A stretch of DNA of 47,570 nucleotides from Pirellulales bacterium (GTDB taxonomy: Bacteria; Planctomycetota; Planctomycetia; Pirellulales; UBA7805). The stretch lies in the NCBI GenBank assembly GCA_030751095.1, contig JASMGX010000005.1:1-47570 (forward strand). The letters are read 5' to 3'. Shown here one piece after another: positions 8,261-28,430 of this stretch; within the stretch, counting starts at the first letter, position 1, and every line of letters starts with the position of its first letter. Both the position numbers and the translations under genes were made by a program. Below the pieces are notes generated by a model that was not told the origin of the DNA, made no database searches, and was given only the letters and a program-made list of their open reading frames with translations.

Positions 8261-8265
8261 TCAAC

Positions 8266-9863: not shown

Positions 9864-9892
9864 AGGATATCTTAAACGGCCACCGTTGTCAA
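9864..9892 (-). promoter_or_regulatory. Sigma70-type promoter for the DUF1501 operon
   Basis: Minus strand TTGACA-N17-TATCCT; implies a leader of about 190 nt. Confidence 0.6.
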
Positions 9893-10476
9893 AGACAAAA
9901 CCTGCTCTGCCGGGGAAGCAGCAGGGTCGAAAACGATAAAAACTGCTTATTTTCTGCCTCCAACAGATATCTCCCCAAGGGAGGGAGAGCATGGCCGGCT
10001 ATCTCGAGTTTTTCTTTTTGGCCGATGCGAGATTGGTCGATGGCTCCCGCCGCAGCGGCGAGAGAACAAAGAGGGACACCAAGTTCCATGGCTCGTTCGA
10101 ATGTTGTCTCGATATAAAAAATGGAAACCGGCACTCAAGGAACAACCGACAACTCTCCATTCGGTTCTGCCGTTTTTAGACGCACGAGCCAAAATGTGTA
10201 ACGCAGAGAACCCGCATCGACCCTAAAGGCGCGATTTAGAGATGTGTGCATCCAGTTTGGCACCCGCTTCACACATTGTTCCGACAAGTGCAACATCGTC
10301 ATCACGTTACAGGGAAGTTCTTTCGAGTTTCGAACAGATATCATCCGCAATGAAATCAGACCTGAATGTCTCTTTCTGCAAACGCAATTATATTTCAGAA
10401 ATTTCCAAAAAAGAATGTGGCGCGTATCGAATGCCTATATAGTATCTTTTCCGGTTTATTTTAATGGAGGTACAGC

Positions 10477-11043
10477 ATGCGTTATCTGGGGCTATCTCTG
10501 GCACTGGCATCCATTATTGGCTGCGGCAATTCCATCAAACCCAACGCAGACTTAACGGCAGCATACTTAAATGATGCCAACCTGAACAAAACCGATCTTG
10601 GGTACGCGAACCTCTTTGAATCGCACCTGCGTTCGGCTGACCTGAGCGGATCAAACTTGACCCATACCAATCTTCAGGCCGCCGATCTGAGCAGAGCCGA
10701 TCTGGATGGTGCCAGCCTGAGCTTTGCAGACTTAAAAGGCGCGAAACTGGTTTCGGCAAACCTGATCGGGGTCGACCTGTCGTTTGCAGACCTCGGCAAG
10801 GCTGATTTATCCGGGGCAGTAATGACTTCTGCGAATTTGACACAGGCGAACCTTCGCAAGGCGAATCTCACCAACGCGAACCTGAGTGGTGCGAATTTGA
10901 CCGGTGCTTTTTTTCGATATTCCGAGGGTTGGGACAAGGCAACCTGGACCGGTGCGTACTACGACACAGAACACCCTGCTGTGTGGCCGAAGGACATGGA
11001 TCCGACAACGCTCGGCATCACTGAGAAAAAGCCCGAGGATTAA
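10477..11043 (+). CDS. Pentapeptide repeat lipoprotein
   Basis: RBS GGAGG, lipobox-like LASIIG-C, about 24 A(D/N)Lxx repeats, C-terminal cap GAYYD...WPKDMDP. Confidence 0.92.
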   Translation: MRYLGLSLALASIIGCGNSIKPNADLTAAYLNDANLNKTDLGYANLFESHLRSADLSGSNLTHTNLQAADLSRADLDGASLSFADLKGAKLVSANLIGVDLSFADLGKADLSGAVMTSANLTQANLRKANLTNANLSGANLTGAFFRYSEGWDKATWTGAYYDTEHPAVWPKDMDPTTLGITEKKPED

Positions 11044-11143
11044 CTCCCACGATGAACGATTCCCACATCCTTCAATAGGGGCGATGCTTACTCGCACCAC
11101 ACCGAGAGATTCAAGGGGGGGATTCAGAGCGGGAACCTGCGAA

Positions 11144-14100
11144 TCAGGGTGCTTTGGCTGCCCCACTCGGCGCTTTCGGGTCCGATTGCCCGGGCCGCAA
11201 GAGCGAGCCATCGAGCTCGCTCAGATAACGGACCAGATCTCGCAAATCCGCCCGGGGCAGGCCGCTGGTTAGGCCCGAAGGCATCAAGGTCCCGGCCGCT
11301 TCGAACCGGTCCACCGTCCGCCAGGGAATCATTTCCTCTTTTTTGGTGACCGCATCAAGCAGGACGATGCCATCGGGACTCTCGCTGACCTTGATCCCCT
11401 GAAACACTTTGCCGTCGTGCGTGAAAATCGTAATCGAGACATACCCTTCCTTGATCTCGCGGGCCGGCCAGACCACCGCTTCAATAATCCGGTCGACCGG
11501 CATCCCCCGGCCAACACTGCTCAAGTCAGGCCCAACTTTTTCGCCCTTACCATAGATCGCATGGCACGCGGCGCAGTTGAGGTAGGCCGATTGAAAGACC
11601 TCTTTGCCACGTTCGGCATTTCCGTTTTCCAAGACCTCCAAAGCGAGCGCGTTGATCCATACCGGATCGTGCGCCCGTTGCACGCTCTTGAGCCCGAGTG
11701 CCGAATCGAGAACTTCGGTAAGCCTCTCGTGAGAAACCGCCGCAGCGCTCGCGGCGCGGCGCAACTGTCCCGCGGCAGCGGAGGGAATCGTCGCACCAGA
11801 GAGCGCATCGGCCAATGCAGCGGCGCCCTCCTTACGGACAAGAATCGCGGCAAGCAGATCGCTCGCCTGCTGCTCGGTCGTTATCGATTCGATCAACTCT
11901 GTAGCCCGCTTTGCCGCTGCGGCAATGTCCGTCTGCGCCCAACTCCCGAGCGCCGCACAGGCGAGTTGCCAGTTTTTTGGGTTTTCCGACAACGCATTTA
12001 GTGTCTCGGTCGCGCTGGCGGCACCGAGGGGCAAAAGCGCCTTCGCTGCTGCGCACCGCACCTCGGTAGCCTCGGAGAGATCGGTGGCAAATTGCAGAAC
12101 CTCAGCAGATAGCTCTTCCATCTTCCAACTGGCCGCCAAATCGATCGCAGCGGCCCGCATGGCAGAATCATCGCTGCCGAGCCAGCGCCGCATTGGAGCA
12201 ATCCAATCTCCCTCTGGCCGCACACCGCGCAAAAGCGCAGCGGTGGCAACGCTCTCGAGCAATGCGGCGCTGAGGTCCTCATGCCGCAGGACGTATGCGA
12301 GTTCTTTCGGGCCACCGGCTAGCGCCAATCGGCGGAGCATCTGCTCGCGAATCTTCGGGCTCAGGCGACCGACGAGTTTCGGGTTCTGCAAGAATGCTAA
12401 CATCTCCGCAGATCCATCCGCGCTGAGAACAAATGCGATCCGCTCGGGATCCTTGCCGAAATCGATCGAGCCGGCCACAAAGGCATCGCGCCAATGCGGC
12501 CCGAGCGCATGAACCGCATGCACCAGAGCATAATCAATGTATTTGTTTCGCGGTGCATCGACCGCGCGAGCAGCAACCTCCATCGCCCGCGCATCGGGCA
12601 CATAACTGCACGCCACAACCGCTTCAAGTCGAACGCGCTCATTTTCATCGCGAACCAAGGTGGCCAGGGTACTAAGCGGATCGCGAAGCCGGTCCTGCCA
12701 GAGTCCGACCACGCGGGCGGCATAGGCACGCGCACGCGGATCGCGCGCTGCGACCAATTTGGAAAGAAGCTGCTCATCGACATATTCGTGCGACTGCAGA
12801 ACACCGATCGCCCGGTAGAGGAGTTGTTCGTATGCCGGATCCTTCTCATCCATTTTGTCGACCCACGCCAACACCGCAGAGACCACTTTCTCTGAGTCGC
12901 CAGCCTGAAGCAACCGCCGGACCTGATGCCGCTCGTACCGCTCGCCGCTGCGAAGTTTTTCGACCAGTTCCGGGATTTTCAATCCCGTCAAATCGGAAGG
13001 CGTGCGAAGGGGACGGTCTTTTGCGCTCACGCGCCAGATCCGGCCATGCTCCTTATCGCGGTCCGGATGCCGGTACGATGCTTGATAGTGGCCAATAATC
13101 GGGTTGTACCAATCCGCCACATAGAGAGCTCCATCCGGTCCGATCCGCATGTCGACGGGACGGAAGCTACGGTGTTTGGAAACGATCAGGGGCGCCATTT
13201 CCTCGAGCTTCATGTTCTGCGAATCATCCTCTAGCCGGAAACGGAGGATGGTATTGTTCAGAAAACTCCCGGTCACGATTTGGTTGGCGGTCTCGGAGCC
13301 AAAATGCTCACCGCCTAAAAACTCCGTCGAGGCGACTTTGTCGCGATTCCAGAGCGTCGGTAGCGGCTGACGATGGCTATGCCGGATCAGGGCGGGCGTC
13401 ATCCAGAAAATGCCGTGACCATTACCCGCTGCGAGGATCGGCTGCCCCCAGTCATCAAACGCCAATCCCCAGGGGTTGTGTGGTGGTGCTTCACGACCGA
13501 AAAACGGATCGAGTTGCAAGCGCCGCGGCCGCAGACGCCAGAGTCCGGCGTTGTCGAGTCGTTCGATGCCCCACGGCGTTTCGATCCGCGAAAAAATATG
13601 CAAACCCTGCGAGAAAAAAAGATCGCCCCCCGGGCTCCAGGTAAAATTATTGATGAGCTGGTGGGTATCGCCGATCCCGAAGCCGGTCAGCACCAAACGC
13701 CGCGTGTCCGCCTTTCCGTCGCCATCGGTGTCTCTCAGATGCAGCAGATCCGGTCCACTACCGACGTACACGCCGCCATCCCCCAGTTCGATTCCCTGCG
13801 GCAAAAAGAGGTTTTCGGCAAACGTCTGCCTCCCGTCCGCCTTTCCATCGCCATCGCTATCGGAGAGGACCACGATTTTGTCGTTGGCTTTCTCGCCCGG
13901 CTTGATCTGCGGGTAGAGTGGAGTACTGATCACATATAGTTTGCCATCCGGGCCCCATCGCATCTGGATCGGATTGGCAATCCCGTCCTTCTCCGATGCA
14001 AAGAGGCTCACCTCGTATCCCGGCGCAACTTCAAACGTTTCGAGTTCCTGCTCCGGCGAAAGTGCATCGGCAGCAAACGCCGCCCGCAGAGTGACTGCCA

Positions 14101-14146
14101 AAAGGACACAACAGATGGGCATACAATAGCGCAGAGGTCGGATCAC
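11144..14146 (-). CDS. PVC-type membrane-bound dehydrogenase / heme-binding CxxCH protein (beta-propeller + HEAT repeats + cytochrome c)
   Basis: LSPEQELETFEVAPGYEVSLFASE, DTDGDGKAD repeats, FRPVDMRIGPDGALYVADWYNPIIGH, HEAT region, GKEVF...CAACH...GPDLS...MPSGL. Start set at GTG 14146 after RBS GAGGTG. Confidence 0.92.
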   Translation of the reverse strand: MIRPLRYCMPICCVLLAVTLRAAFAADALSPEQELETFEVAPGYEVSLFASEKDGIANPIQMRWGPDGKLYVISTPLYPQIKPGEKANDKIVVLSDSDGDGKADGRQTFAENLFLPQGIELGDGGVYVGSGPDLLHLRDTDGDGKADTRRLVLTGFGIGDTHQLINNFTWSPGGDLFFSQGLHIFSRIETPWGIERLDNAGLWRLRPRRLQLDPFFGREAPPHNPWGLAFDDWGQPILAAGNGHGIFWMTPALIRHSHRQPLPTLWNRDKVASTEFLGGEHFGSETANQIVTGSFLNNTILRFRLEDDSQNMKLEEMAPLIVSKHRSFRPVDMRIGPDGALYVADWYNPIIGHYQASYRHPDRDKEHGRIWRVSAKDRPLRTPSDLTGLKIPELVEKLRSGERYERHQVRRLLQAGDSEKVVSAVLAWVDKMDEKDPAYEQLLYRAIGVLQSHEYVDEQLLSKLVAARDPRARAYAARVVGLWQDRLRDPLSTLATLVRDENERVRLEAVVACSYVPDARAMEVAARAVDAPRNKYIDYALVHAVHALGPHWRDAFVAGSIDFGKDPERIAFVLSADGSAEMLAFLQNPKLVGRLSPKIREQMLRRLALAGGPKELAYVLRHEDLSAALLESVATAALLRGVRPEGDWIAPMRRWLGSDDSAMRAAAIDLAASWKMEELSAEVLQFATDLSEATEVRCAAAKALLPLGAASATETLNALSENPKNWQLACAALGSWAQTDIAAAAKRATELIESITTEQQASDLLAAILVRKEGAAALADALSGATIPSAAAGQLRRAASAAAVSHERLTEVLDSALGLKSVQRAHDPVWINALALEVLENGNAERGKEVFQSAYLNCAACHAIYGKGEKVGPDLSSVGRGMPVDRIIEAVVWPAREIKEGYVSITIFTHDGKVFQGIKVSESPDGIVLLDAVTKKEEMIPWRTVDRFEAAGTLMPSGLTSGLPRADLRDLVRYLSELDGSLLRPGQSDPKAPSGAAKAP

Positions 14147-14180
14147 AGACACCTCTCTAAAAGGCAATGGACGCCACACC

Positions 14181-15716
14181 TTACTGGGGGGCAACCTGTT
14201 TGCTGATGTCCGCCTCGAGCGCAGAGATCAGCGGTAAAAATTCTTCCATTTCGTCAGGGAACGTTCGGACCTTGTGGGACGGGTCCTGGCTGAAGGGGAC
14301 CATCATCCGCGTGCCGCCGAGGAAGGCCCAGTTGGTGGGACGCCAGTAGTTGAACCAGAGCCGGTTTTTTTCGCGGACTAATGCTCGAACCGGTTCGAGC
14401 TGCTCCGACCATTTGTGCGCCACACCTAGTTGTCCCGCGGTCTCTTCGGCAACGCCAAGCCAAGCATCCGGCGCAAGGTGCATTCCATCCGTGGTTTGCC
14501 GATCGGGTGCAGCCGGGCTAGGCGCGTTAAAAAGATCGACAAACACATAACCCCGCCTTGCAGCCAGATCGCCCGTGGCAGCAACGTACTCGCCAAGCGA
14601 TTCGTTCAACTGCGCCAGATCGGGCAGGGGGGGCTCGGGAGTTTCAAACGGGATCGGAGAAACAAGCACGATGCGGTCTGCGTATGCCGAAAGCCGGTCC
14701 AGAAGTTTTTCATATGCTGCGACAAATTCCGATATTTTCTCGCGTCCCGCCATCGACTCAGGCCCTCCGAAGCTTGCGATGATGACCGTCGGCGCAACGC
14801 GAGGCAATTGTTTCTCCCAGCTACCAAAATAGGGGGGTCGCTGTTGCGAAAAAACGGTATCGGCTTGCCACGCCATGTTGCGAAAGCGGACCGAGCCGCC
14901 CGCTGCACGCGAGAGCAGCGATTCGAGATACCCGTACCGCGAGGCAAGCATCGCATTGGTCCCGCCGACAAAAACGACCGTATCATCTTTGCGGAGCGCA
15001 AAGGGAGTTGTCGGCTTTGCTTTCTTTTCCTGTGCCGCGCTCACCTTTTCGATCCGGGGCCGAAGCGCATCGATAAGTTCTTTTTCATTTTTACCGGCAA
15101 TCGACAAGGGGGGGTTTTTTACTAATTTGAGATCGGCAAAGACCAGTTTCATCGGCGGCCCTGCATGCAGTTGCAAGCTTATCTGCCCCGAGAGCGCCCC
15201 TTTCGGGTCGTCGATTGCGACGGAAATCACGCCGTTAATCGCCGTCCAGATCCGGTGGCCGACCGCCAGTATCTCATACTCGTTCCACGCGTCGGGCTTA
15301 ACCTGCTCTTCGCCCACACTCGGCCAGTCCAGAAAGGCCCGGCCATGCTCCTCATACAAACAGCCCCAGCTCCCTTTTCCGATATCGGCTTGATAGCCGA
15401 TCGCAAATCCCCCTTTACCGGGTCGGCTTCGAAACTGCACTCCGCTGTTGCCGCTGTTGGGGATCAGTTTGACTTTGAAGGAGAGGTAGAAGTCGCCTAC
15501 TTTTTCGTCCGACCAGAGAAATTCATTGCCTGGAATATATTCTTTCGATGCGCCCACAATCATTCCGTCCTGGACCGACCAGTACTTGTGGTTGCCCTGC
15601 CAGCGGTCCAGGTTTTTGCCATTAAAAAACCCTTTCGCAATTTCCGGTTCACCCGCCGCTGCGGGGAGAGCCAGTACCAGAGACAAACAGAACCAGATTA
15701 TTTTTTTTTGCTGCAT
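14181..15716 (-). CDS. DUF1080 (3-keto-disaccharide hydrolase-like) + SGNH/GDSL-like domain protein
   Basis: FFNGKNLDRWQG...NSGVQFRS...GYQADIG...WNEYEI...GQISLQLH, then an SGNH fold (VVFVGGT, FRNMAW, LVSPIP, TTDGMHL). Confidence 0.88.
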   Translation of the reverse strand: MQQKKIIWFCLSLVLALPAAAGEPEIAKGFFNGKNLDRWQGNHKYWSVQDGMIVGASKEYIPGNEFLWSDEKVGDFYLSFKVKLIPNSGNSGVQFRSRPGKGGFAIGYQADIGKGSWGCLYEEHGRAFLDWPSVGEEQVKPDAWNEYEILAVGHRIWTAINGVISVAIDDPKGALSGQISLQLHAGPPMKLVFADLKLVKNPPLSIAGKNEKELIDALRPRIEKVSAAQEKKAKPTTPFALRKDDTVVFVGGTNAMLASRYGYLESLLSRAAGGSVRFRNMAWQADTVFSQQRPPYFGSWEKQLPRVAPTVIIASFGGPESMAGREKISEFVAAYEKLLDRLSAYADRIVLVSPIPFETPEPPLPDLAQLNESLGEYVAATGDLAARRGYVFVDLFNAPSPAAPDRQTTDGMHLAPDAWLGVAEETAGQLGVAHKWSEQLEPVRALVREKNRLWFNYWRPTNWAFLGGTRMMVPFSQDPSHKVRTFPDEMEEFLPLISALEADISKQVAPQ

Positions 15717-15781
15717 ACCGATATTCCGTTACTCTGCCTCTTGGGCGAATGGGATTTTGGACGAATGCTTGAGGGAAAAAC

Positions 15782-16204
15782 TCAGTAAAGGACCGGCGCT
15801 TTAAGTGAGCACCAGGGCTCTTCCTGGTAGACATCGATCAGGGCCGGGCCTTCGAATTTGGCGGGGGACAGAATGGCGAGAAATTCAAGCGTGGTATCGA
15901 ACGGGTTATAGGTACCGTGGACTACGTCGATGGGGATGTGGGCAATTTCTCCCGGCCCCAGGATTTGATGCTCCTGCTCAATCCACTGCTCTGCCTTACC
16001 GGAGAGCACGTAGATAATTTCTTCCATTTCCGGGTGACGATGGAATTGATGGGCTTTGCCCGCTGGCATCGCGACACGGACCAACAGCAGTTTTTCTGCA
16101 TCCACAAGCCCGGGACGCGCGAGCCAGTCGTGGGGACCCCAGGGGAATTCTTCCACCTCAACTTGATCGCCCGAAACAAAGCGAAGCAGTTCCGATTTAT
16201 CCAT
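15782..16204 (-). CDS. Cupin domain protein
   Basis: HQFHRHPEMEEIIYVLSG and PGEIAHIPIDVVHGTYN cupin metal-binding motifs. Confidence 0.92.
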   Translation of the reverse strand: MDKSELLRFVSGDQVEVEEFPWGPHDWLARPGLVDAEKLLLVRVAMPAGKAHQFHRHPEMEEIIYVLSGKAEQWIEQEHQILGPGEIAHIPIDVVHGTYNPFDTTLEFLAILSPAKFEGPALIDVYQEEPWCSLKAPVLY

Positions 16205-16257
16205 AACGAATCCTCGTTGCGGAAATTGAGGCGGAAAACGTGTTGAGCGCTCGGCCC

Positions 16258-16286
16258 TTAGCCAGACTTCTGCTGGAAAGTATAAT
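16258..16286 (+). promoter_or_regulatory. Putative sigma70 promoter upstream of the TIM-barrel gene
   Basis: TTAGCC-N17-TATAAT (perfect -10 at 16281-16286). Confidence 0.45.
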
Positions 16287-16351
16287 CGAGAGCCACATCA
16301 TTCATAAGGGCCGTACAAACTACTTCCAAAACCCCGAGAGGATTTTCGCCC

Positions 16352-17203
16352 ATGCCGCCTAGCACAACGTTTCAATTAGCTCCAACTCGCAAAGAAATTC
16401 TCGCCGCCCTCCGCAGCCAAATCGATGCCGCCAAACCGATTATTGGCGCAGGAGCGGGCACAGGCATCTCCGGCAAGTTTGCCGAAGCGGGCGGCGTGGA
16501 CCTGATTGTGATCTACAATTCCGGCCGCTATCGCATGGCAGGTCGCGGTTCGACCGCTGGGCTGATGGCCTATGGTGATGCGAACGCGATCGTCGTCGAT
16601 ATGGCCCGAGAAGTGTTGCCGGTGGTTCGCAACACACCGGTCCTCGCCGGCGTACATGGCACCGATCCGTTTCGCATGATGCCGGTCTTTCTTTCCGAAC
16701 TCAAGGAGATGGGATTTGCCGGGGTCCAGAATTTCCCCACTGTGGGACTTATCGACGGACATTTCCGGACCACCCTCGAGGAGACCGGAATGAGCTACCA
16801 ACTGGAAATCGACATGATCGCATATGCGCACGAACTCGACCTGCTCACCACGCCCTATGTCTTCAACCCTGAGGAAGCGGTGGCGATGACGCAAGCGGGC
16901 GCCGACTTGATCGTGGCCCACATGGGCTGCACCACCAAAGGCAGCATCGGGGTGAGTACGGCCAAAAGCCTTGAAACGTGCGCGGAGGAAATTCAGGCGA
17001 TCCACGACGCGGCAAAATCGGTCCGCGAGGAGGTGATGGTGATCTGCCACGGGGGAACCATCAGCGAACCGGACGATGCGCAATACATTCTGGACAACAC
17101 GCAGGGAGTTGTTGGATTTTTCGGCGCCAGCAGCCTCGAGCGACTTCCCACCGAACGGGCGATCACCGAACAGGCCGAGACCTTTAAGGCGATGCGTGTC
17201 TAG
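16352..17203 (+). CDS. Phosphoenolpyruvate hydrolase-like family TIM-barrel protein (PEP_hydrolase)
   Basis: [71 protein letters not shown]. Confidence 0.95.
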
Positions 17204-17343
17204 CGGCACGCGAGCCTTCCGAAGCAGGCAACAACAGGTATTTTTTAAAGGCAGCGGGCCGCACTGCGATGGAACCATTTTCCATCCTGTACGTTCCGCA
17301 AGAGCCTCCAGAGATAAACCGCGGGAACACCGCCGGGCGGCCC

Positions 17344-17622
17344 ATGCAAATCCATGTCCTCTATACGGCACAATTGAAGGATGCCGCGGGCGCCGCCGAG
17401 CAGATGATTATTCTTCCCGACCGAAGCACCGTCCGCCGCTGCCTTTCGGAAATTGTCCAGATCCATGGCGAGGCACTCCGCACGATGCTATTCGACTCCG
17501 AAGAAAACCTGCTTCCATCGGTACTCCTTTGCCTCGGAGACGAACAGATATCTATCGATCACGCATCGCCGCTCTCAGACGGTGATGAGCTGACATTGCT
17601 CAGTGCCATTAGCGGCGGATAA
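17344..17622 (+). CDS. MoaD/ThiS family ubiquitin-like sulfur carrier
   Basis: 92 aa, MQIHVLYTAQLKDAAG...LSDGDELTLLSAISGG with a C-terminal Gly-Gly. Confidence 0.9.
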   Translation: MQIHVLYTAQLKDAAGAAEQMIILPDRSTVRRCLSEIVQIHGEALRTMLFDSEENLLPSVLLCLGDEQISIDHASPLSDGDELTLLSAISGG

Positions 17623-17646
17623 TATTCTTTCCTTCAGGATGCAGCC

Positions 17647-18402
17647 ATGCCTCAGGCACCACTGAACAACGAAGAGAAGGAAATCTATGCGTGGCAGATT
17701 CCGGTTTGCGATTTCGGCGAAGAGGGCCAGGAGCGACTCAAGGGAGCGAGCGTCCTCATTTCCCGCATTGGCGGTCTCGGCGGCGTCGTTGCGTACGAAC
17801 TGGCCGCTGCGGGAATTGGCCATTTAATCCTCGCCCACGCAGGTGATATCAAACCGGGCGATCTCAACCGCCAACTCCTGATGACCCACGACGCCCTCGG
17901 CACACCGAGAATTGAATCGGCGAAAAAGCGGCTCTTGGAGCTCAACCCGCGTCTTCAGATTGACGCCGTTGCGCAAAACGTTGCCGAGGACAACGCCGCC
18001 GATCTGGTTTCCCGCGCCGACGTAGTGGTCGACTGCGCGCCACTCTTTGCAGAGCGCTATCTCTTAAACCGCCATGCCGTTGCCCAGGGCAAACATCTTA
18101 TCGAATGTTCGATGTACGAGATGGAATTCAACATCACTTCCATTGAGCCCGGCACGACACCTTGCCTGAGGTGCCTCTTCCCGGATGAGCCTCCCACCTG
18201 GAAGAGAGAGTTTCCTGTCTTCGGCGCGGTCTCCGGTGCCGTCGGATGTCTTGGTGCTACTGAAGCGATCAAGATACTCGGTGGCTTTGGAAATCCCCTC
18301 TACGGACAGATGATTCGCGGCGATCTACGGAACATGCAATTCCAAAAGATTACCATTCATCGAGACCCGTCTTGCCGGGAATGCGGGCATCTTTTTCAAT
18401 AA
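17647..18402 (+). CDS. HesA/MoeB/ThiF family E1-like adenylyltransferase (HesA-like)
   Basis: GQERLKGASVLISRIGGLGG, DLNRQ, PCLRC and CRECG Zn sites, VFGAVSGAVGCLGATEAIK. Confidence 0.92.
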   Translation: MPQAPLNNEEKEIYAWQIPVCDFGEEGQERLKGASVLISRIGGLGGVVAYELAAAGIGHLILAHAGDIKPGDLNRQLLMTHDALGTPRIESAKKRLLELNPRLQIDAVAQNVAEDNAADLVSRADVVVDCAPLFAERYLLNRHAVAQGKHLIECSMYEMEFNITSIEPGTTPCLRCLFPDEPPTWKREFPVFGAVSGAVGCLGATEAIKILGGFGNPLYGQMIRGDLRNMQFQKITIHRDPSCRECGHLFQ

Positions 18403-18567
18403 TGCCAGCGGTGTACGAGAATCGCATGTATTGTGATCTGCCCGCACTTCTTCGATGCCGCGCCAGCGAACCGCACCACGGCGTGCCCCATCTCGACCCG
18501 CTTCTTTACTCAAGCTAGGCTATGGATAGCTTCGAGAACCAATTTTTCACCAATCACCCGCTGTTCC

Positions 18568-20175
18568 ATGCGACTCTTTCCACAAAAATCAGGATCTACC
18601 AATTCCACGACGATCCTTTTGTATGGATCTCTGGTGGTGTTGTTTTTGCTGGTCCTAACGCTCTGGCGGAGCGGTTCGGATCAAAGAGCTCCCGTATCGG
18701 AAAACACCAAAGAACCCACCGCGAACGCTGATTCCGATCGGCCGCTCTTTGTCTATTGCGCGGCCGGCATGCGTAAACCGATTGAAGAGATTGTTGCCGC
18801 CTACGGGCGGGAATACGGAGTCCCGATCCACCTGCAATATGGCGGATCCAACACACTCCTTGGCCAGCTTGAGGTGAGCCGCACCGGAGATCTCTACCTT
18901 GCTGCCGATGAAAGTTATACCCGCCAAGCCCAGCAGAAGGGTTTGGTTCAGGAACGACTCCCCGCGGCAAAGATTCGCCCCGTGATCGTCGTTAAGAAGG
19001 GTAATCCAAAAGGCGTGCAGGGCATTGCTGATTTAGCCGCTGGCAAGGTGAGGTATGCCCTCGGAGATCCGGATGCCGCGGCCATCGGTAAAAAAACCCG
19101 CAGCCTCCTCTCGGCCTCGGGCGACTGGCTCGCTGTCAAAGAAAACGCCACCGTCATCAAGCCAACGGTCACCGATGCGGCCAATGCCGTGAAGATCGGC
19201 AGCGTCGACGCCGCCATCGTCTGGGATGCCACCGCTGCACAATATCCCGAATTGATCGCCATTCGCGACCCGGCCCTCGATCGCGGCGCCGCGATCATCG
19301 AGATCGCGGTCACCTCGTTTGCCAAGGACCCCACCGCTGCCCTCCATTTTGCCCGATTCGTTGCCGCGGCCGACAAAGGGCTGACATCGTTTGCCGGTTG
19401 TGGAATCGAAACGGTCGACGGCGACCGGTGGGCCTCGCAGCCGGAAATAACCCTTTTCGCAGGTTCGGTCAATCGCCGCGCGATTGAACCGGCAATTCGT
19501 GCGTTTGAAGGCCGCGAAGGGGTCACCGTCAACACGGTCTATAACGGCTGCGGCATCCTGACAGCCCAGATGAGAGGCATGTACCAATCCAGGCAGGATG
19601 ATTTTCCGGATACCTATTTGGCCTGCGATGTCTACTATCTCGACACCGTAAAAGAATTATTCGAAAACCCGGTCAATATTTCCGACACCGACATTGTGCT
19701 CACCGTACAAAAAGGAAATCCCAAAAATATCCAAACGCTAAATGACCTCACGCGCGATGGTGTTCGGCTTGCCCTCGGTCAAGAGCAGCAGTGCACCATC
19801 GGGATACTCTCCCGCCGCCTGCTCGCAAGCCAGGGCCTTTACGAGAAGCTCGTGCAAAATGGGAATATCGTCACGGAAACTCCCACCTCTGCGCTGCTTG
19901 TCCCCAACGTCACCACAGGGGCTGCCGATGCAGCCCTCGCCTACTATTCGGACACCCTGGCCGAAAAAAATCGCCTCACCATCATCCCCATCGACTCCCC
20001 GCTCGCCAAGGCAATCCAGCCATTTAGCATCGCAAAGACCAGCCAGTACAAATACATGGGCCGCCGCCTTTTTGATGCGATTGCCGCCTCGCAGGACGAT
20101 TTCATCGCGGCGGGATTCAACTGGCGACTCGGCGACCGGACGGGTCCGTTAAAACCTGAAGAGTCCGGCAATTAG
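18568..20175 (+). CDS. modA: Molybdate/tungstate ABC substrate-binding protein with two tandem ModA-like domains and an N-terminal membrane anchor
   Basis: TM segment; domain 1 (YCAAGM...YGGSNTL...DLYLAAD...KGNPKGV...VDAAIVW); domain 2 from about 19441 (FAGSVN...YNGCG...DTYLACD...KGNPKNI...ADAALAY). Lies upstream of modB/modC. Confidence 0.85.
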   Translation: MRLFPQKSGSTNSTTILLYGSLVVLFLLVLTLWRSGSDQRAPVSENTKEPTANADSDRPLFVYCAAGMRKPIEEIVAAYGREYGVPIHLQYGGSNTLLGQLEVSRTGDLYLAADESYTRQAQQKGLVQERLPAAKIRPVIVVKKGNPKGVQGIADLAAGKVRYALGDPDAAAIGKKTRSLLSASGDWLAVKENATVIKPTVTDAANAVKIGSVDAAIVWDATAAQYPELIAIRDPALDRGAAIIEIAVTSFAKDPTAALHFARFVAAADKGLTSFAGCGIETVDGDRWASQPEITLFAGSVNRRAIEPAIRAFEGREGVTVNTVYNGCGILTAQMRGMYQSRQDDFPDTYLACDVYYLDTVKELFENPVNISDTDIVLTVQKGNPKNIQTLNDLTRDGVRLALGQEQQCTIGILSRRLLASQGLYEKLVQNGNIVTETPTSALLVPNVTTGAADAALAYYSDTLAEKNRLTIIPIDSPLAKAIQPFSIAKTSQYKYMGRRLFDAIAASQDDFIAAGFNWRLGDRTGPLKPEESGN

Positions 20176-20209
20176 GGCAACTGCCAATTCTAGCGGAGAG
20201 CATTCTGTT

Positions 20210-21634
20210 TTGTCTCATATCGATGTTACCCTTAGCGATCCACCTCGCCGCGCCGGAGCAAACCGGTTTTTCTTTTTTGCGCTAGGCACGATTGGCGGCA
20301 CCTACGTGCTGCTGATCCTCATGCTTCTCGGGGCAGATGTCGTCTACCTCTTTAGCGGTCGCAGCAGCGAAGAGGTTGTTGTCGATTTTTCGGTAGATGC
20401 AAATCGAACCCGTATTCAAGGCGGCGAGAGTCCGTCCGATCGCTTTGCAAAGTATGGATTATCATTCGCCAGTGCCGCGGACGAACGTTCTCTGACATTT
20501 CTTGACAGTTCCGATCCTGGCGCGTTTGAAGCATTCGGCACACCACATGAAGATTTTGGCGGTACCGGTCGCGGCGCCGGTGGTCGACGGGGCGAGCAGA
20601 CAGAGAACGACCGGCCACTCGGTAATGTACTGCTGCTTACTGAGGATAACGCACCGAGCGGTGGCACCATCACACTGAACTGGAAACAACCGGTCGAGTT
20701 GGATCGCCTCACCATCCTCAATGCCCGGCAGGGGGCATCGCTGCGGGCATTTTCTTCCGATGGAAAACTCGCCATCGAGAGAGAACTGGCAACAACCGGT
20801 CCATCGAGTGTGCTCTCTGTGCACCTCGGCATCAAGAATATTTCCCGGCTTGATGTCGCGTTGCCTGATGGCGGCGCACTTGCCGATGTCGCCTTTTTCT
20901 GGAACGGCCGACTCCTTGCCGACTGGGAGGCGGCACATCCGATCCTGGCCGCTGTTGCGTACAACCCGATCACCAATGCACTGGCAAAACCTGAAATCCA
21001 GCATTCCATCTACCTGAGTCTCGTCTCCTGCACCATCACCACCATCCTGTCCCTCTGGACGGCCGTCCCCTTAGGCTACCTTCTTTCCAGGCATCGTTTT
21101 TTCGGTCGCGATTTTATCGACGCGGTGCTCGACATACCGATCGTGCTTCCACCGCTCGTGGTGGGGCTGAGCCTCCTGATCCTGTTCCAGTTCTTCCCGG
21201 CGACACTCCGCGAGGCGGTCATCTACAAAGTTCCCGCCGTTATTCTCGCCCAATATGCTGTTGCCTGCGCGTTTGCTGTACGCACGATGCGCGCGACCTT
21301 TGACCAGATCGACTCCCGCCGGGAGATGGTCGCACTCACACTCGGCTGCAGCCGGGCGAGCGCATTTATGCACATCGTACTCCCCGAGTGCCGCCGCGGC
21401 ATGCTCACCGCGGGCACCCTCGCCTGGGCGCGGGCGCTGGGCGAATTCGGCCCGCTCCTTATTTTTGCCGGAGCCACGAGAAACAAGACGGAGGTACTTT
21501 CGACGACCGTCTTTTTGGAACTAAGTGTTGGCGACCTGGGAGCGGCGGTTGCCGTTTCGATGATCATGGTCGTCTCTGCGATCATCGTCCTCGTTTTGGC
21601 AAGGCTATGGGGAACCCGTACCCTATCGATTTGA
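20210..21634 (+). CDS. modB: Molybdate ABC permease (ModB-like) with a large inserted soluble domain
   Basis: C-terminal half has DIPIVLPPLVVGLSLL, the EAA loop (EMVALTLGCSR) and WARALGEFG. About 180 aa of soluble sequence follow TM1. Confidence 0.88.
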   Translation: MSHIDVTLSDPPRRAGANRFFFFALGTIGGTYVLLILMLLGADVVYLFSGRSSEEVVVDFSVDANRTRIQGGESPSDRFAKYGLSFASAADERSLTFLDSSDPGAFEAFGTPHEDFGGTGRGAGGRRGEQTENDRPLGNVLLLTEDNAPSGGTITLNWKQPVELDRLTILNARQGASLRAFSSDGKLAIERELATTGPSSVLSVHLGIKNISRLDVALPDGGALADVAFFWNGRLLADWEAAHPILAAVAYNPITNALAKPEIQHSIYLSLVSCTITTILSLWTAVPLGYLLSRHRFFGRDFIDAVLDIPIVLPPLVVGLSLLILFQFFPATLREAVIYKVPAVILAQYAVACAFAVRTMRATFDQIDSRREMVALTLGCSRASAFMHIVLPECRRGMLTAGTLAWARALGEFGPLLIFAGATRNKTEVLSTTVFLELSVGDLGAAVAVSMIMVVSAIIVLVLARLWGTRTLSI

Positions 21635-21649
21635 AATGCGTCTGGAGAA

Positions 21650-22306
21650 TTGTTCTTGATTACAATCGATCGTGTTACCATCCGAGCGGGTGACTTCCAT
21701 TTGGAAAATGCCTCTCTCTCGGTACCGACAGGCAGCTACGCGGTTCTGATGGGCAGAACCGGCTCGGGCAAAACATCGCTCCTAGAAGCGGTTGCCGGCC
21801 TCAAGGCGATTGTTTCAGGCCGCATCTTTTTAGGCGACCGCGATGTGACTGCGTGCACACCGGCAGAACGACATATCGGCTATGTACCACAGGACGGTGC
21901 TCTTTTTGAGCATATGAACGTTCGTGAACATCTGGCATTCGCGCTCAAGATACGCAAGGCGGCACCATCCCACATCGCCCACCGGGTTGAACACCTTGCA
22001 GGGATGCTGGAAATCGAACCGTTGCTTTCCCGCTCGATCCACGGACTCAGCGGCGGTGAAAAACAACGCGTCGCGCTTGGCAGGGCACTGTCGTTTTACC
22101 CGAAGATCCTACTTCTCGATGAACCCCTCAGCGCTCTCGACGAACCGACCCGCAGACAGATGCACACCCTTCTGAACCATGTGAAAGAGGAGACGGGGGT
22201 CACGACATTGCATGTAACGCACCAAATGTTTGATGTCGAACATCTTGCGGACTGTATCTTCAGGCTCGATGAGGGCAAAATCGTGCGCGATGCCCTACCC
22301 GGATAG
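21650..22306 (+). CDS. modC: ABC transporter ATP-binding protein (ModC-like, no TOBE domain)
   Basis: Walker A GRTGSGKT, GYVPQDGALF, LSGGEKQR, LLLDEP, HVTH; TTG start after GGAG. Confidence 0.88.
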   Translation: MFLITIDRVTIRAGDFHLENASLSVPTGSYAVLMGRTGSGKTSLLEAVAGLKAIVSGRIFLGDRDVTACTPAERHIGYVPQDGALFEHMNVREHLAFALKIRKAAPSHIAHRVEHLAGMLEIEPLLSRSIHGLSGGEKQRVALGRALSFYPKILLLDEPLSALDEPTRRQMHTLLNHVKEETGVTTLHVTHQMFDVEHLADCIFRLDEGKIVRDALPG

Positions 22307-22418
22307 ATTGGCGCACGATCCCGCTTGGCGGGACTCGAAATGAACCGACCCGGGCGGCTATACTATTCCCTTTCCCGCCCCACATCAAAAACCTCATTGC
22401 CTTCTGGAGCATCCGGAC

Positions 22419-23981
22419 ATGAAACTATTTTCCACACTGCTCGTTGCGTCAATCCTTCCGCTTCTCTGCCAGGCACCCGTTCGTGGAGAGGTCAAGCTGC
22501 CCAACATTTTTGGGCCGCACATGGTTTTGCAGCAGCAGCAGCCAATCCGCGTGTTCGGCTCTGCCGATCCGGGCGAAAAGGTAACCGTATCTTTTGCGGG
22601 GAAAAAGGGCACGGCGACTGCCGGCACCGATCGGCGGTGGCAAGTCACGCTGCCCGCCATGCAGGCGAGCAACAAACCGCAGAACATGGCGATCGAGGGC
22701 AAAAACCGGATTCAACTCACAGACATCCTCATTGGCGAGGTCTGGATTTGCAGCGGACAATCCAATATGGAATGGTGGCTGCAAAACAGCGCTAACGCAA
22801 AAAAGGAAATCGCTGCTGCCGATTATCCCGAAATCCGGCTCTTCGATGTGACCGGCCACACCATGCACCGCGAAGCGCAGGCGAACACCACCGGGAGATG
22901 GAAGCTGTGCAAACCGGCGACGGCCCGCAGCTTCTCAGCGGTCGGATATTTCTTTGGCCGGGATCTTTATCAAAAAACCAACGTTCCCATCGGCCTGGTC
23001 GGCTCGAACTGGGGCGGCACCAAGATCGAACCCTGGACGACGGTCGATGGCTTTGCATCTGTCCCGGAACTGAAGCATTACAGCGATGGCCTCAAAAAGC
23101 TCGACCTCTCCACCCGGGAAGGCAAAGAACATCACCGGGAATATCTCGACCGGCTCACACAGTGGATCTCCAAGGCCCACGAGAAAGTAAACCGCAATGA
23201 GCCGACCGGCTCGCCGCCAACGCCACCGAGCCTGCACGACCTCGACGGTGCGACCGCCATCTACAATTCCATGGTCCACGGCCTGGCCCCCTACAGCCTT
23301 CGCGGGGCAATCTGGTATCAGGGAGAATCGAACGGCGATGAGGGCGAAAGCTATTACCACAAGATGCGAGCCCTCATCAACGGCTGGCGCAAGGCGTTCC
23401 AAAACCCAGAACTCGCATTCTATTTTGTACAACTCGCAAATTACCGCGAGGGCAACAAGCCCGAGGAGCGTTGGGCACCCCTTCGTGAGGCCCAACGTAA
23501 AACGCTCCGCGTCCCACATACCGGAATGGCGGTCACTACGGACATCGGCAATCCCGCCGATATCCATCCCCGCAACAAACAGGATGTCGGACGACGCCTG
23601 GCCCTCTGGGCCCTGCGCGACATCCACAAGCAAGACGTGACTCCGTCGGGCCCCCTCTTTCGCGAACTGAAGATTGAGGGCAATACAGCCCGCGTTCTAT
23701 TCGACTATGCTCCCAATGGACTCATGGTCGGAAAAAAGAAGGGGTTGGCTCCCACCCGCGAAGTAAAAGATGGGAAGCTGAGCGATTTCCTCATCGCCGG
23801 CGCGGACAAAAAATGGCATCCGGCGAATGCAACGATCGACGGCAACGATGTTCTCCTCTCCTGCCCCAGCGTGCCAAAACCGATCGCCGTCCGGTACGCT
23901 TTTCGCCAGAACCCGCAAGGGGCAAACCTGTATAATACAGAAGGCCTTCCTGCTTCACCGTTCCGTTCTGATAGCTGGTAA
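22419..23981 (+). CDS. Sialate O-acetylesterase family (SASA) secreted protein
   Basis: Signal peptide, GEVWICSGQSNM, FSAVGYFFGR, WGGT.IE.W, WYQGESN, DIHPRNKQDVGRRLA, GLPASPFRSD. Confidence 0.95.
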   Translation: MKLFSTLLVASILPLLCQAPVRGEVKLPNIFGPHMVLQQQQPIRVFGSADPGEKVTVSFAGKKGTATAGTDRRWQVTLPAMQASNKPQNMAIEGKNRIQLTDILIGEVWICSGQSNMEWWLQNSANAKKEIAAADYPEIRLFDVTGHTMHREAQANTTGRWKLCKPATARSFSAVGYFFGRDLYQKTNVPIGLVGSNWGGTKIEPWTTVDGFASVPELKHYSDGLKKLDLSTREGKEHHREYLDRLTQWISKAHEKVNRNEPTGSPPTPPSLHDLDGATAIYNSMVHGLAPYSLRGAIWYQGESNGDEGESYYHKMRALINGWRKAFQNPELAFYFVQLANYREGNKPEERWAPLREAQRKTLRVPHTGMAVTTDIGNPADIHPRNKQDVGRRLALWALRDIHKQDVTPSGPLFRELKIEGNTARVLFDYAPNGLMVGKKKGLAPTREVKDGKLSDFLIAGADKKWHPANATIDGNDVLLSCPSVPKPIAVRYAFRQNPQGANLYNTEGLPASPFRSDSW

Positions 23982-25523: not shown

Positions 25524-25559
25524 GACAACCTCCCGCCAAGGGCTGGGGGTTGTCTTTTT
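25524..25559 (+). terminator. Rho-independent terminator
   Basis: GACAACCTCC-loop-GGGGGTTGTC followed by TTTTT, just after the oxidoreductase stop. Confidence 0.75.
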
Positions 25560-25614
25560 GCGCAGAATCGACGCCTCCTTCTGCCACCTGGGGCTCTCGT
25601 GTACAACAGGTCGC

Positions 25615-26646
25615 ATGTCAGAGACCCAGCACGAGCGGATACCTCCCGGCCAACAACTGCTTCGAGCAGGTCGCTGGCCTGCGGTCGGCGAATCGGCGCC
25701 CGCCGGGGACGATGGCGATTGGACGCTTTCTCTGCGCGGCCTGTTTCGCGAGCCCCGATCCATCACGCTTCGCGAATTATCGAGCCAGCCCCAGGTCGAT
25801 TCCTCGATCGACATCCACTGCGTAACCCGCTGGAGCCGCCTCAATATTCCCTTTCGCGGCATTCCGCTCAATCAACTACTTGCCGATGAACATATTCTTC
25901 CGGAGGCCGCGTACGTTTCGTTCATTGCGAGAAGCGAGCGGGCCCATTCGAGCAGCGTTCCGCTGGCTGTAGCGCGAAAGAGCCTGCTCGCGCTCGAGGC
26001 GGAGGGCAAACCCCTTTCGCGTGAGCACGGTGGCCCGCTTCGCGTCGTTGTACCCGATAAATATTTTTACAAGAGCGTCAAATGGCTCGAGCAGATTGAA
26101 CTTCTCCGTGAGGATCGCCTCGGTTACTGGGAGGCCGATGCCGGCTACCACAACGGGGCCGACCCCTGGCGGGAGGAGCGCTACGTTGCACCCGCCATCA
26201 GCAAACAGCAGGCGGTGCGCCTCATGGCAGAACGCGATTTTTCCCGCGAGGATCTAATGGGCATCGATGCGAGCGGCCGCGAGTTGAGAGGCTTGCGCGC
26301 TCGTGCTGCGCTCTTGCGAAATGCCAACTTCCAAAATGCGACCTTGTGCGACGCCGACTTTACCGGATCCAATCTGGCCAACGCCCACTTTCAGGGCGCC
26401 GATTTGCAACGGGCCGTGTTTGAAGACGCAGATCTGGAGGGCGCGAACCTAGCCGGCGCGGACCTTCGCGGCGCAGCGCTCACCGGAGCCTCGCTCTTCG
26501 GGGCAACATTTTTTGAAGAGGCGACCGACTCTGCCCCGGCTCGTGCCGCCCTGCTGGATGCATCGACGAAACTTGCGGCGGACCAGATTTCGCTTTTGGC
26601 TGACGACCAGGAGCAATACTTAAGACAGTTTATCACCGTTTCATGA
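25615..26646 (+). CDS. Sulfite-oxidase-family molybdopterin oxidoreductase (YuiH-like) fused to pentapeptide repeats
   Basis: RIPPGQ, DIHCVTRWS (Mo-ligand Cys), HGGPLRVVVP..YFYKSVKWL, GYWE..GYH..ADPWREERY, then ANFQNATLCDADFTGSNLANAHFQGADLQRAVFEDADLEGANLAGADLRGA. Confidence 0.9.
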   Translation: MSETQHERIPPGQQLLRAGRWPAVGESAPAGDDGDWTLSLRGLFREPRSITLRELSSQPQVDSSIDIHCVTRWSRLNIPFRGIPLNQLLADEHILPEAAYVSFIARSERAHSSSVPLAVARKSLLALEAEGKPLSREHGGPLRVVVPDKYFYKSVKWLEQIELLREDRLGYWEADAGYHNGADPWREERYVAPAISKQQAVRLMAERDFSREDLMGIDASGRELRGLRARAALLRNANFQNATLCDADFTGSNLANAHFQGADLQRAVFEDADLEGANLAGADLRGAALTGASLFGATFFEEATDSAPARAALLDASTKLAADQISLLADDQEQYLRQFITVS

Positions 26647-28421: not shown

Positions 28422-28430
28422 TGCACGCCG

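Follow-up and report, generated by a model that had tools for sequence, protein, structure and literature searches.

When a sulfur carrier and an E1-like enzyme are encoded side by side with a molybdate-type importer, do they supply the molybdenum cofactor (Moco), or do they handle metal and sulfur in some other way? This question is raised by positions 15,782 to 22,306 of a contig of a Pirellulales bacterium (Planctomycetota; GenBank assembly GCA_030751095.1, contig JASMGX010000005.1), which was analysed over a stretch of 47,570 nucleotides, hereafter the window. Here genes for a cupin and a TIM barrel lie beside genes for a ThiS/MoaD-family carrier, an E1-like protein (hereafter E1) and an ATP-binding cassette (ABC) importer of ModABC type (Table 1). 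The region is made up of two unrelated units, cupin and TIM barrel on one side and carrier, E1 and importer on the other, and the latter is a conserved five-gene cassette that spans several phyla. Its E1 forms one clade with HesA of nitrogen-fixation (nif) clusters, apart from canonical E1s. We hold with middling confidence that the cassette serves a HesA-like handling of molybdenum (or tungsten) and sulfur tied to Mod-type import, and is not a housekeeping Moco pair.

Related loci were collected by an E1 scan of species-representative genomes, which returned 323 matching stretches, 242 of them encoding a relative; the best 80 were kept (labels of the type L001; 1,173,956 bases in total, approximately 1.22 Mb with the window). 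Their E1 proteins are 59-67% identical to that of the window, except for a 96%-identical twin, L001. Planctomycetota account for 57 of the 80 loci and Bacteroidota for seven (Cyclobacteriaceae, Reichenbachiellaceae, Rapidithrix and Agaribacillus), Poribacteria and Hydrogenedentota contribute two each, Omnitrophota, Fibrobacterota, Victivallales and one genome labelled Alcaligenaceae one each, and eight are unclassified. The tandem ModA, ModB, ModC and carrier of the window recur widely in these loci by tblastn. In order to count them, a full-flank set was defined by at least 9 kb upstream and at least 8 kb downstream of the E1 (39 of the 80 loci) and scored with profile hidden Markov models built from clustered open reading frames (ORFs). 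Tandem ModA, ModB and carrier are each found in 32 of the 39 loci; the two importer genes occur together in all of those 32, and tandem ModA together with the carrier, as well as the three genes jointly, in 30. The carrier lies directly upstream of the E1 in 56 of the 73 loci that offer at least 1.3 kb of upstream sequence. The prevailing order is ModA-ModB-ModC-carrier-E1, while carrier-E1-ModA-ModB-ModC is confined to the window and L001; the module gene set is kept through at least five gene orders and at least six labelled phyla, and this variety of order argues for functional coupling. In an E1 tree arranged by phylum, Bacteroidota, Poribacteria and Hydrogenedentota form one clade each, the backbone is unresolved, the outgroup branch is very long, and the window E1 and L001 sit on a long branch. 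A full-text search, to which subscription journals were not open, retrieved no description of this module.

The E1 aligns from end to end with the well-known members of its family, its residues 7-247 with residues 4-246 of Escherichia coli ThiF and its residues 4-247 with residues 2-248 of E. coli MoeB. It retains the CxxC pairs of the zinc site (C173/C176 and C243/C246, equivalent to C172/C175/C244/C247 of MoeB) and also Arg73, Gln74 and Arg135, in the E. coli MoeB numbering used throughout. Seven other positions are changed, each to the same residue in all 34 aligned family members: Arg14 to Trp, Gly38 to Arg, Asp62 to His, Asp64 to Gly, Asn70 to Asp, Lys86 to Arg and Asp130 to Pro. The window E1 thereby departs from the canonical ATP/Mg set of Arg14, Asp62, Lys86 and Asp130 (Arg11, Lys83 and Asp127 for ThiF), in which we take Asp62 to belong. 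According to the accessible part of a published account, ThiF Asp127, together with Arg11 from the partner subunit, touches the ATP phosphates, Lys83 is listed with these two as a functional site residue, and the counterpart Asp of MccB binds Mg (PMC12596934). The replacements look compensatory, as if the loss of Arg14 were made good by Arg38 and that of Asp130 by Asp70. The protein falls below every NCBIfam cut-off: its best model, MoeB PRK08762, gives 206.5 against a cut-off of 449, and further models of MoeB, ThiF, MoeZ and UbaA type give 178.5/266, 144.1/376.55, 145.1/275.25 and 167.8/450 (score/cut-off).

This pattern is not restricted to the 80 loci. Among 1.84 billion representative proteins, 19,257 match the E1 at E<=0.001; within the best 150 of these, 63 show the exact canonical pattern and the rest carry either the window pattern or intermediates that also lack Asp62, Asp64 and Asp130. 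Fourteen non-canonical representatives were scored against NCBIfam, and none reached any cut-off. Longer, fused forms of at least 441 amino acids were not seen at E<=1e-40, which is weak evidence, and one E1-carrier fusion of 340 amino acids is on record. The closest annotated relatives found by tblastn against plasmids are two HesA genes, to which the window E1 is 46-47% identical, as against 35% to E. coli MoeB. One of them is part of the nif cluster of a Pseudanabaena plasmid, where it is flanked by nifW and a HesB-like gene. The other, on a plasmid of Nostoc sp. C057 (L083 2603-14061), stands amid modA, a modBC fusion and modD, near or next to nifN, and is flanked by two 69-amino-acid Mop-type genes annotated as molybdopterin-binding; a linkage of HesA with Mod genes therefore exists in a diazotroph too. 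Both cyanobacterial HesA proteins carry Arg62, Gly64, Asp70, Arg86 and His130.

A tree was built from 85 sequences, namely the window E1, those of five loci, the two HesA proteins, E. coli MoeB and 76 representatives; the remaining 74 of the best 150 were excluded as fragments or as longer than 300 amino acids. A single branch parts the 37 sequences without Asp130 (window, five loci, both HesA and 29 representatives) from the 48 canonical ones, with a Shimodaira-Hasegawa-like approximate likelihood ratio (SH-aLRT) of 100, and of 99 after removal of the eight signature columns. The window E1 and nif-cluster HesA thus form one clade, and the label HesA-like, under which the original prediction had introduced this protein, is right in the strict sense.

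Canonical E1 genes adjoin the HesA-like E1 in five of the 80 loci (L007, L057, L067, L074 and L080) and keep all canonical residues. In the Rubripirellula locus L007 (10001-12171) the HesA-like E1 is followed by an 89-amino-acid ThiS-family gene and a canonical MoeB-rhodanese E1 of 384 amino acids, and the series continues with a beta-propeller, a thioredoxin-fold protein (both described below) and the tandem ModA, which places both kinds of E1 in one gene string. In the other four loci the neighbour is a canonical ThiS-ThiF fusion (L057 7829-8668, L067 9030-9896, L074 2559-3380, L080 10762-11571), the hosts being Hydrogenedentota, one unclassified bacterium and Victivallales; a separate carrier was undetected in three of them (L057, L067 and L074). 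The presence of a canonical MoeB-rhodanese protein with its own ThiS-family gene in L007, and of ThiS-ThiF fusions in four further loci, supports the view that the HesA-like E1 is not the housekeeping enzyme.

The carrier passes the Pfam ThiS model (28.7 against a cut-off of 22.5 bits) and stays below the NCBIfam cut-offs (moaD_arch 33.9 against 49.5, moaD 26.1 against 66.15; SAMP1 31.0). It ends in Ser-Gly-Gly, and 36 of 39 family members have the terminal Gly-Gly. Mean column identity is 41% for the carrier and 73% for the E1. Homology and adjacency suggest that the two proteins bind each other.

The importer is recognisably of Mod type, and each of its three subunits departs from the E. coli pattern. 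The binding protein passes the modA model TIGR01256 (87.2 against 62.5), while sulfate and thiosulfate models give 24 bits. Its two halves are 32% identical (E 4e-18), the trace of an internal duplication, and a membrane anchor lies ahead of the duplicated part; it measures 535-580 amino acids, compared with 257 in E. coli ModA. An AlphaFold2 model (predicted local distance difference test, pLDDT, 88.9; predicted template-modelling score, pTM, 0.80) finds its best Foldseek matches in the bacterial ModA structures 4kd5, 8k8l, 7tav, 2h5y and 1wod, with target-normalised TM-scores of 0.76-0.86; PEB3 (0.70), archaeal WtpA (0.57-0.65) and sulfate-binding proteins (0.58-0.64) rank lower, and the two-domain layout is matched by the SBD1-SBD2 tandem of GlnPQ (6h30). 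Three cysteines recur without exception in the 43 family sequences aligned. A profile alignment maps the cysteine of domain 1 to mature Ala9 of E. coli ModA and those of domain 2 to Ser39 and Ala58, so that the domain-2 cysteines are predicted to face the pocket. The anion contacts of E. coli ModA include Ser12, Ser39 and Tyr170, as stated in the accessible part of the source (PMC8895017); their equivalents, by the same alignment, are Gly/Ser/Trp in domain 1 and Val/Cys/Tyr in domain 2.

The permease stays below the cut-offs of TIGR01581 (173.1 against 210.3) and modB (145.8 against 182.6), with 124.6 on the sulfate permease model. Its 474 amino acids compare with 229 in E. coli ModB and with 276-321 in the family, where only the window and L001 (474), L047 (383) and L070 (550) fall outside this range; an N-terminal extension and an insertion of approximately 190 amino acids after the first membrane helix are common to the window and L001 only, and the insertion has no family match. 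The ATPase likewise misses the cut-offs (WtpC 202.2 against 440, modC 172.9 against 285.05; sulfate model 183.2). It has 218 amino acids against 352 in E. coli ModC, most family members having 212-244, and it covers only positions 5-210 of the 353 of the modC model and therefore is without the C-terminal TOBE-type regulatory domain, which, to judge by these lengths, is absent throughout the family. By analogy with the families and folds matched, the substrate is most likely a tetrahedral group-6 oxyanion, molybdate or tungstate.

Genes for the remainder of a Moco pathway are not found nearby. Searches by tblastn with E. coli MoaA, MoaB, MoaC, MoaE and MoeA (E<=1e-3) gave no hit in the window or in the 80 loci, and Pfam scans of 38 window ORFs found no MoaE, ThiG or TtuA family, and no JAB, SirA, PAPS reductase, ATP sulfurylase or sulfite reductase either. 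Queries for NifB, NifEN, NifX, NifW, HesB, Mop and ModD likewise found nothing in the window or the 80 loci. No Moco riboswitch or any other Rfam family appears between positions 14000 and 27000 of the window at E<=0.1, and seven loci searched hold none at gathering score either. Much of the original prediction, which was made from the DNA alone, holds up in this light: the seven genes lie where it had placed them and run in the directions that it had given, as borne out by the ORFs, Pfam and the match of the TIM barrel to the Protein Data Bank (PDB) entry 2p10; neither the E1 nor any of the three transporter subunits is canonical, as it had claimed, with missed NCBIfam cut-offs and replaced ATP/Mg residues in the E1, a duplicated ModA, a ModB of 474 amino acids and a truncated ModC; and no moaE, moaA, moaC or moeA is present in the window.

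Table 1. Genes of the region at 15,782 to 22,306 and two further genes downstream of it (positions in the window; lengths in amino acids, aa; scores in bits).
Feature	Position	Strand	Matches
Cupin_2 protein, 140 aa	15782-16204	minus	Pfam Cupin_2 58.6
PEP_hydrolase-family TIM barrel, 283 aa	16352-17203	plus	Pfam PF09370 431.6; PDB 2p10 394
ThiS/MoaD-family beta-grasp carrier, 92 aa, C-terminal Gly-Gly	17344-17622	plus	Pfam ThiS 28.7
HesA-clade E1-like protein, 251 aa	17647-18402	plus	Pfam ThiF 173.3
Membrane-anchored tandem ModA-type binding protein, 535 aa	18568-20175	plus	SBP_bac_11 241.3, two stretches
ModB-type permease, 474 aa	20210-21634	plus	BPD_transp_1
ABC ATPase of Mod/Wtp/Cys type, 218 aa	21650-22306	plus	ABC_tran 103.5
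Sulfite-oxidase-family molybdenum domain fused to pentapeptide repeats	25558-26646	plus	Pfam Oxidored_molyb 115.1; NCBIfam MsrP 68.8 (cut-off 207)
O-acetylhomoserine/O-acetylserine-sulfhydrylase-like pyridoxal 5'-phosphate (PLP) enzyme, 592 aa	26643-28421	plus	Cys_Met_Meta_PP 203.3; OAH_OAS_sulfhy 175.9 (cut-off 495)

Two of the starts in Table 1 were chosen within longer reading frames: the longest ORF of the carrier begins at 17269, and 17344 was adopted because homologues align from there in the family alignment; that of the binding protein is open from a GTG at 18433, with 18568 as its likely start. Gaps between genes measure 140 nucleotides from TIM barrel to carrier, 24 from carrier to E1, 34 from ModA to ModB and 15 from ModB to ModC. 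A simple promoter and terminator scan of 15600-22600 gave counts close to the shuffled expectation and left co-transcription undecided; it showed one promoter-like site upstream of the TIM barrel and no terminator-like site between TIM barrel and carrier. The content of guanine plus cytosine is flat across the window (0.53-0.60), and there is therefore no compositional sign of recent acquisition.

Fuller copies of the module hold further partners. Among the 32 full-flank loci with tandem ModA, 30 add a MacB-type ABC pair, that is, a permease with FtsX and MacB_PCD domains plus its ATPase, or a cysteine protein with tandem thioredoxin folds, or both. The latter family (L018 11159-12472, L033 2915-4192 and 27 other loci) matches nothing in Pfam or NCBIfam and falls into unnamed clusters only in the Protein Atlas; its gene nearly always adjoins the MacB-type pair and the tandem ModA. 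Its members begin with a signal peptide, after which the mature chain starts with an invariant Cys; they also have an invariant Cys-x-Cys and end in a membrane anchor, and a structural model (pLDDT 80.5) resembles the tandem thioredoxin folds bb' of ERp57 at E 4e-6 with low TM-scores. Eighteen of the 39 full-flank loci encode a secreted or lipoprotein-like PQQ_2 beta-propeller of approximately 1,450 amino acids that also has PA14, laminin-G or CHB_HEX_C domains; it stands next to the E1 in L024 (10760-15163) and L027 (2277-6638), for example, and adjoins it in L039 and L040 although the importer is absent there. TauE-family genes occur in six of the 39, and in four a half-size gene of the TauE/SafE sulfite-exporter family follows the E1. 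Homologues of FtsX, the thioredoxin-fold protein and TauE are all missing from the window, and its E1 shares a long branch with L001; the window therefore holds a reduced and rearranged version of the module. A link between the propeller and a 467-amino-acid PQQ_2 protein of the window (29452-30855) was considered and rejected, the similarity being at the level of the repeats only and of at most 45 bits.

HesA is encoded in nif clusters, and its biochemistry has been unclear for decades; we know of no carrier partner or mechanism for it. The genetic evidence comes from Paenibacillus polymyxa, where, in the accessible part of the report, loss of hesA nearly abolishes nitrogenase activity and leaves nitrate reductase, a Moco enzyme, unaffected; the defect is partly suppressed by high molybdate or cystine, and E. 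coli moeB and Klebsiella nifQ restore activity incompletely (PMC6361004). Its authors place HesA in bringing sulfur and molybdenum into the iron-molybdenum cofactor, not in Moco synthesis (PMC6361004). The window E1 resembles HesA, known from the nif clusters of cyanobacteria, Paenibacillus and Frankia, in clade and identity, in sharing Gly64, Asp70 and Arg86, in the loss of Asp62 and Asp130, and in the Mod-gene neighbours seen on the Nostoc plasmid. It differs in having His62 and Pro130 where the cyanobacterial proteins have Arg62 and His130, and also Trp for Arg14 and Arg for Gly38, in a setting devoid of nif genes in the window and the 80 loci, and in its association with an importer whose binding protein is tandem and bears cysteines.

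With MoaD/MoeB of E. coli and with ThiS/ThiF the pair shares folds, sizes, CxxC pairs, Arg73, Gln74, Arg135 and the carrier Gly-Gly, but Arg14, Asp62 and Asp130 are replaced, the equivalog cut-offs are missed and the pair never stands beside moaE, moaA or moaC in the 80 loci. With ModABC of E. coli the importer has in common a passed modA model, a ModA fold in each half and a permease and ATPase that come nearest to molybdenum/tungsten models, whereas its binding protein is tandem, membrane-anchored and equipped with three invariant cysteines, its permease carries extra N-terminal sequence and its ATPase lacks the regulatory domain. The survey of ThiS/MoaD and E1 neighbourhoods by Iyer et al. 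(2006; PMC1779556) describes, in its accessible part, such pairs together with sulfate ABC transporters and O-acetylhomoserine sulfhydrylase, as well as MoeB genes that now and then share an operon with MoaD, and the present cassette is not among the neighbourhood types set out there. It comes closest to type 4e, as far as that part of the survey defines it, in combining a rhodanese-free E1 and a carrier with an oxyanion ABC transporter, with a sulfhydrylase-like gene also present in the window; it differs in that the window ORFs include no JAB, SirA or sulfate-reduction genes (no search aimed at these was made in the 80 loci), that the transporter resembles ModA more than it does the sulfate-binding proteins, and that the carrier already ends in Gly-Gly and therefore needs no processing.

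Starting from the gene content, the conserved linkage, the changed residues and the clade of the E1, we propose by analogy how the cassette may work. The importer would take up a tetrahedral group-6 oxyanion, most likely molybdate or tungstate, as its family and fold suggest. The E1 would bind the carrier and activate its Gly-Gly end by adenylation at a rewired nucleotide site, after which the carrier would accept sulfur as a thiocarboxylate; both steps are modelled on MoaD/MoeB. The sulfur-loaded carrier may then serve an acceptor involved in handling the imported metal, in line with HesA genetics. The pair would thus prepare or hand on molybdenum (or tungsten) with sulfur when molybdate is scarce, and would not act as the MoaD/MoeB of molybdopterin synthase. 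A bolder version, which we put forward tentatively and think unlikely, sees in the cassette the uptake and cytoplasmic core of a complete, nif-independent molybdenum/tungsten-sulfur trafficking system, which would reveal the role of HesA-type E1 proteins, with the Gly-Gly carrier as their missing partner. In its full form, which 30 of the 32 full-flank loci with the importer show, such a system adds the MacB-type pair, the thioredoxin-fold protein, sometimes a half-size TauE-type channel and sometimes a surface propeller. Sulfur from the carrier might meet the imported oxyanion and ligate the metal; the resulting species might be handled outside the cytoplasm by the second ModA domain, with its lining of cysteines, and by periplasmic thiol proteins, and a thio-metal compound or site could be made in this way that bypasses molybdopterin synthase.

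Several observations weigh against the proposed HesA-like role. Seven of the 39 full-flank loci hold the E1 without the importer, and four of these seven contain no module gene at all besides the E1, namely neither carrier nor importer, FtsX, thioredoxin-fold protein, propeller or TauE gene among those scored. The genetics of HesA come from Paenibacillus, while the sequences compared here are two cyanobacterial plasmid HesA proteins, and the two HesA genes examined have no Gly-Gly carrier as a neighbour, in contrast to the window E1. The cassette encodes no sulfur donor, be it a rhodanese or a cysteine desulfurase, and no acceptor. The ModA anion contacts are only partly kept, and carrier, E1, ModB and ModC all lie below every curated NCBIfam cut-off. 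The E1 is missing the Asp that binds Mg and phosphate as well as the trans-acting Arg, so that adenylation is putative and the protein could be catalytically silent. The window itself is without the MacB-type pair and the thioredoxin-fold protein, and its copy may therefore act differently or partly. Finally, the molybdoenzyme gene 3.2 kb downstream fits ordinary Moco supply equally well.

This last point leads to the explanations that compete with ours. In an ordinary Moco-supply operon the carrier would be the MoaD of the genome and the E1 its MoeB, with MoaE, MoaA, MoaC and MoeA encoded elsewhere, and the output would reach, for example, the sulfite-oxidase-family enzyme of Table 1. Such an operon would account for the best family matches, which are of MoaD type for the carrier and of MoeB type for the E1, for the passed modA cut-off and for that molybdoenzyme gene; P. 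polymyxa, too, is reported in the accessible text to have moaA-E and moeA but no moeB besides hesA (PMC6361004), and MoeB does occasionally share an operon with MoaD (PMC1779556). Against it, neither the window nor any of the 80 loci has a moa or moeA gene close to the pair, the catalytic Asp130 and Arg14 are replaced, the E1 is 59-67% identical across phyla, a canonical MoeB-rhodanese protein with its own ThiS-family gene adjoins the E1 in L007, no Moco riboswitch was detected in the stretches searched, and a hesA mutant retains nitrate reductase activity (PMC6361004, accessible part); we consider ordinary Moco supply unlikely. Alternatively, the importer might carry thiosulfate or sulfate, and the carrier thiocarboxylate might feed cysteine or methionine synthesis, with the PLP enzyme as the user in the window. 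Carrier thiocarboxylates do serve sulfur assimilation in the CysO/MoeZ and HcyS/HcyF/MetY systems, and the O-acetylhomoserine/O-acetylserine-sulfhydrylase family, to which the gene 4.3 kb downstream is similar, includes known users of them. Mod and Cys transporters are close relatives: the ATPase scores 183.2 on the sulfate model and 172.9 on modC, the permease 124.6 on the sulfate model and 145.8 on modB; the TauE/SafE genes and the invariant cysteines of the predicted binding pocket fit sulfur chemistry as well, and neighbourhoods of this kind have been described (PMC1779556, accessible part). Still, the binding protein passes modA with sulfate and thiosulfate models far behind, its Foldseek scores against ModA lie well above those against sulfate-binding proteins, Pfam scans of the window ORFs reveal no JAB, SirA, PAPS reductase or sulfite reductase, none of the 80 loci has a gene that corresponds to the sulfhydrylase-like one, and HesA, the nearest characterised relative, is tied to molybdate (PMC6361004, accessible part). 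Uptake of a sulfur oxyanion is therefore, in our estimate, quite improbable.

The lost Asp130, Arg14 and Asp62 admit yet another explanation, namely that the E1 is catalytically silent and acts with the carrier as a regulator or chaperone, for instance in place of the missing ModC regulatory domain, or that it pairs with a canonical E1 and is itself inactive, as happens in the heterodimeric E1s of eukaryotes. The absence of a TOBE-type domain from ModC throughout the family, the canonical E1 beside the HesA-like one in five of the 80 loci and the much stronger conservation of E1 than of carrier would suit such a role. Yet the changes look compensatory and not degenerative, and all of them are invariant; Arg73, Gln74, Arg135 and the zinc site are retained, the carrier Gly-Gly is nearly always kept, most loci have no second E1 nearby, and loss of hesA has a clear phenotype (PMC6361004, accessible part), all of which makes a silent E1 a very doubtful explanation. 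HesA-like handling of molybdenum (or tungsten) and sulfur remains the reading that we prefer, and the idea of the original prediction that this is a specialised metal-sulfur pathway accordingly stands in part: the linkage of carrier and E1 with ModABC (30 of 39 full-flank loci), the lack of a Moco gene nearby and the precedent of HesA speak for it, its mechanism is drawn from analogy, and the part that it had assigned to TIM barrel and cupin finds no support.

That part had been the use of the carrier thiocarboxylate, or of a thio-metal species, by the TIM barrel or the cupin. The TIM barrel gene is co-oriented with the carrier gene and close upstream of it with no terminator-like site between them, L001 has the same order, and the window lacks the usual partner of the TIM barrel, all of which would suit a dedicated user. 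The gene-neighbourhood check by tblastn across the 80 loci, however, found the TIM barrel beside the cassette in one locus, the twin L001, and a cupin homologue in none; the contig of L001 ends 73 nucleotides before its TIM gene, and the cupin therefore cannot be judged there. Elsewhere the TIM barrel keeps other company. Homologues occur on 234 plasmid records of bacteria and haloarchaea, mostly at 60-80% identity (60-70% for the copies of Thermomicrobium, Azospirillum and Haloarcula). In each of the four plasmid contexts inspected, from Thermomicrobium, Azospirillum, Haloarcula and Rhizobium, a Tm-1-like (UPF0261) ATP-binding gene adjoins it, and neither carrier nor E1 is present. On Rhizobium pRL22b6 a Tm-1-like gene is followed by the PEP hydrolase and then by a cupin 31% identical to that of the window (E 1e-16). 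A tblastn search with four Tm-1-like queries found nothing in the 47.6-kb window or the 80 loci. The window TIM barrel is a close member of the Tm-1-like/PEP-hydrolase pair known from Mll9387 (PDB 2p10), and stands beside a cupin as on pRL22b6, from which it differs in lacking the Tm-1-like partner and in a cupin that is divergently transcribed and not downstream. Cupin and TIM barrel, which probably pair with each other, are a partial copy of this association with no conserved tie to the cassette, and their place upstream of it is due to chance or to a lineage-specific rearrangement. The neighbourhood data bring a role as user of the carrier close to refutation, the lack of a conserved linkage being an outcome that the original prediction had itself named as speaking against it, and we regard it as extremely improbable. 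For the family PF09370, a full-text search retrieved no paper.

Other genes of the window and of the related loci complete the picture. An esterase and a GFO-type oxidoreductase separate the cassette from the molybdenum-domain gene, which overlaps the PLP-enzyme gene by 4 nucleotides; the PLP enzyme has an N-terminal extension of approximately 135 amino acids. The PLP enzyme has no counterpart in the 80 loci, and of the molybdenum-domain protein only the pentapeptide part matches, in two loci; it is possible that both are local consumers of the cassette output, which are not conserved with it. A 137-amino-acid ORF without family match overlaps the PLP-enzyme gene, and the resulting trio (25558-28824) is unusual and looks translationally coupled. 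The stretches 3348-14194 and 30859-32931 hold typical planctomycete families, among them a PSCyt2/PSD1 protein, a DUF1501 protein, a 1,016-amino-acid PVC-type haem-binding protein and a 3-keto-disaccharide-hydrolase domain fused to a glucose/sorbosone dehydrogenase; these families speak for an origin in Planctomycetota. In L005 (8571-12192) and L051 (8479-12186) the E1 lies between a LarN-like protein and an M20 peptidase, with no carrier and no importer.

Altogether, HesA is part of a distinct E1-like clade in which the catalytic Asp disappeared a single time. Non-diazotrophic Planctomycetota, Bacteroidota, Poribacteria and others are home to a large branch of this clade, whose genes are tied to those of a Gly-Gly carrier and of an importer that is of molybdate type but unusual. 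This corrects an annotation habit that labels such genes MoeB, MoaD and ModABC and takes them for routine Moco supply. The cassette offers a concrete and testable system for the processing of molybdate after uptake, and the full module of other genomes could prove to be further still from known systems.

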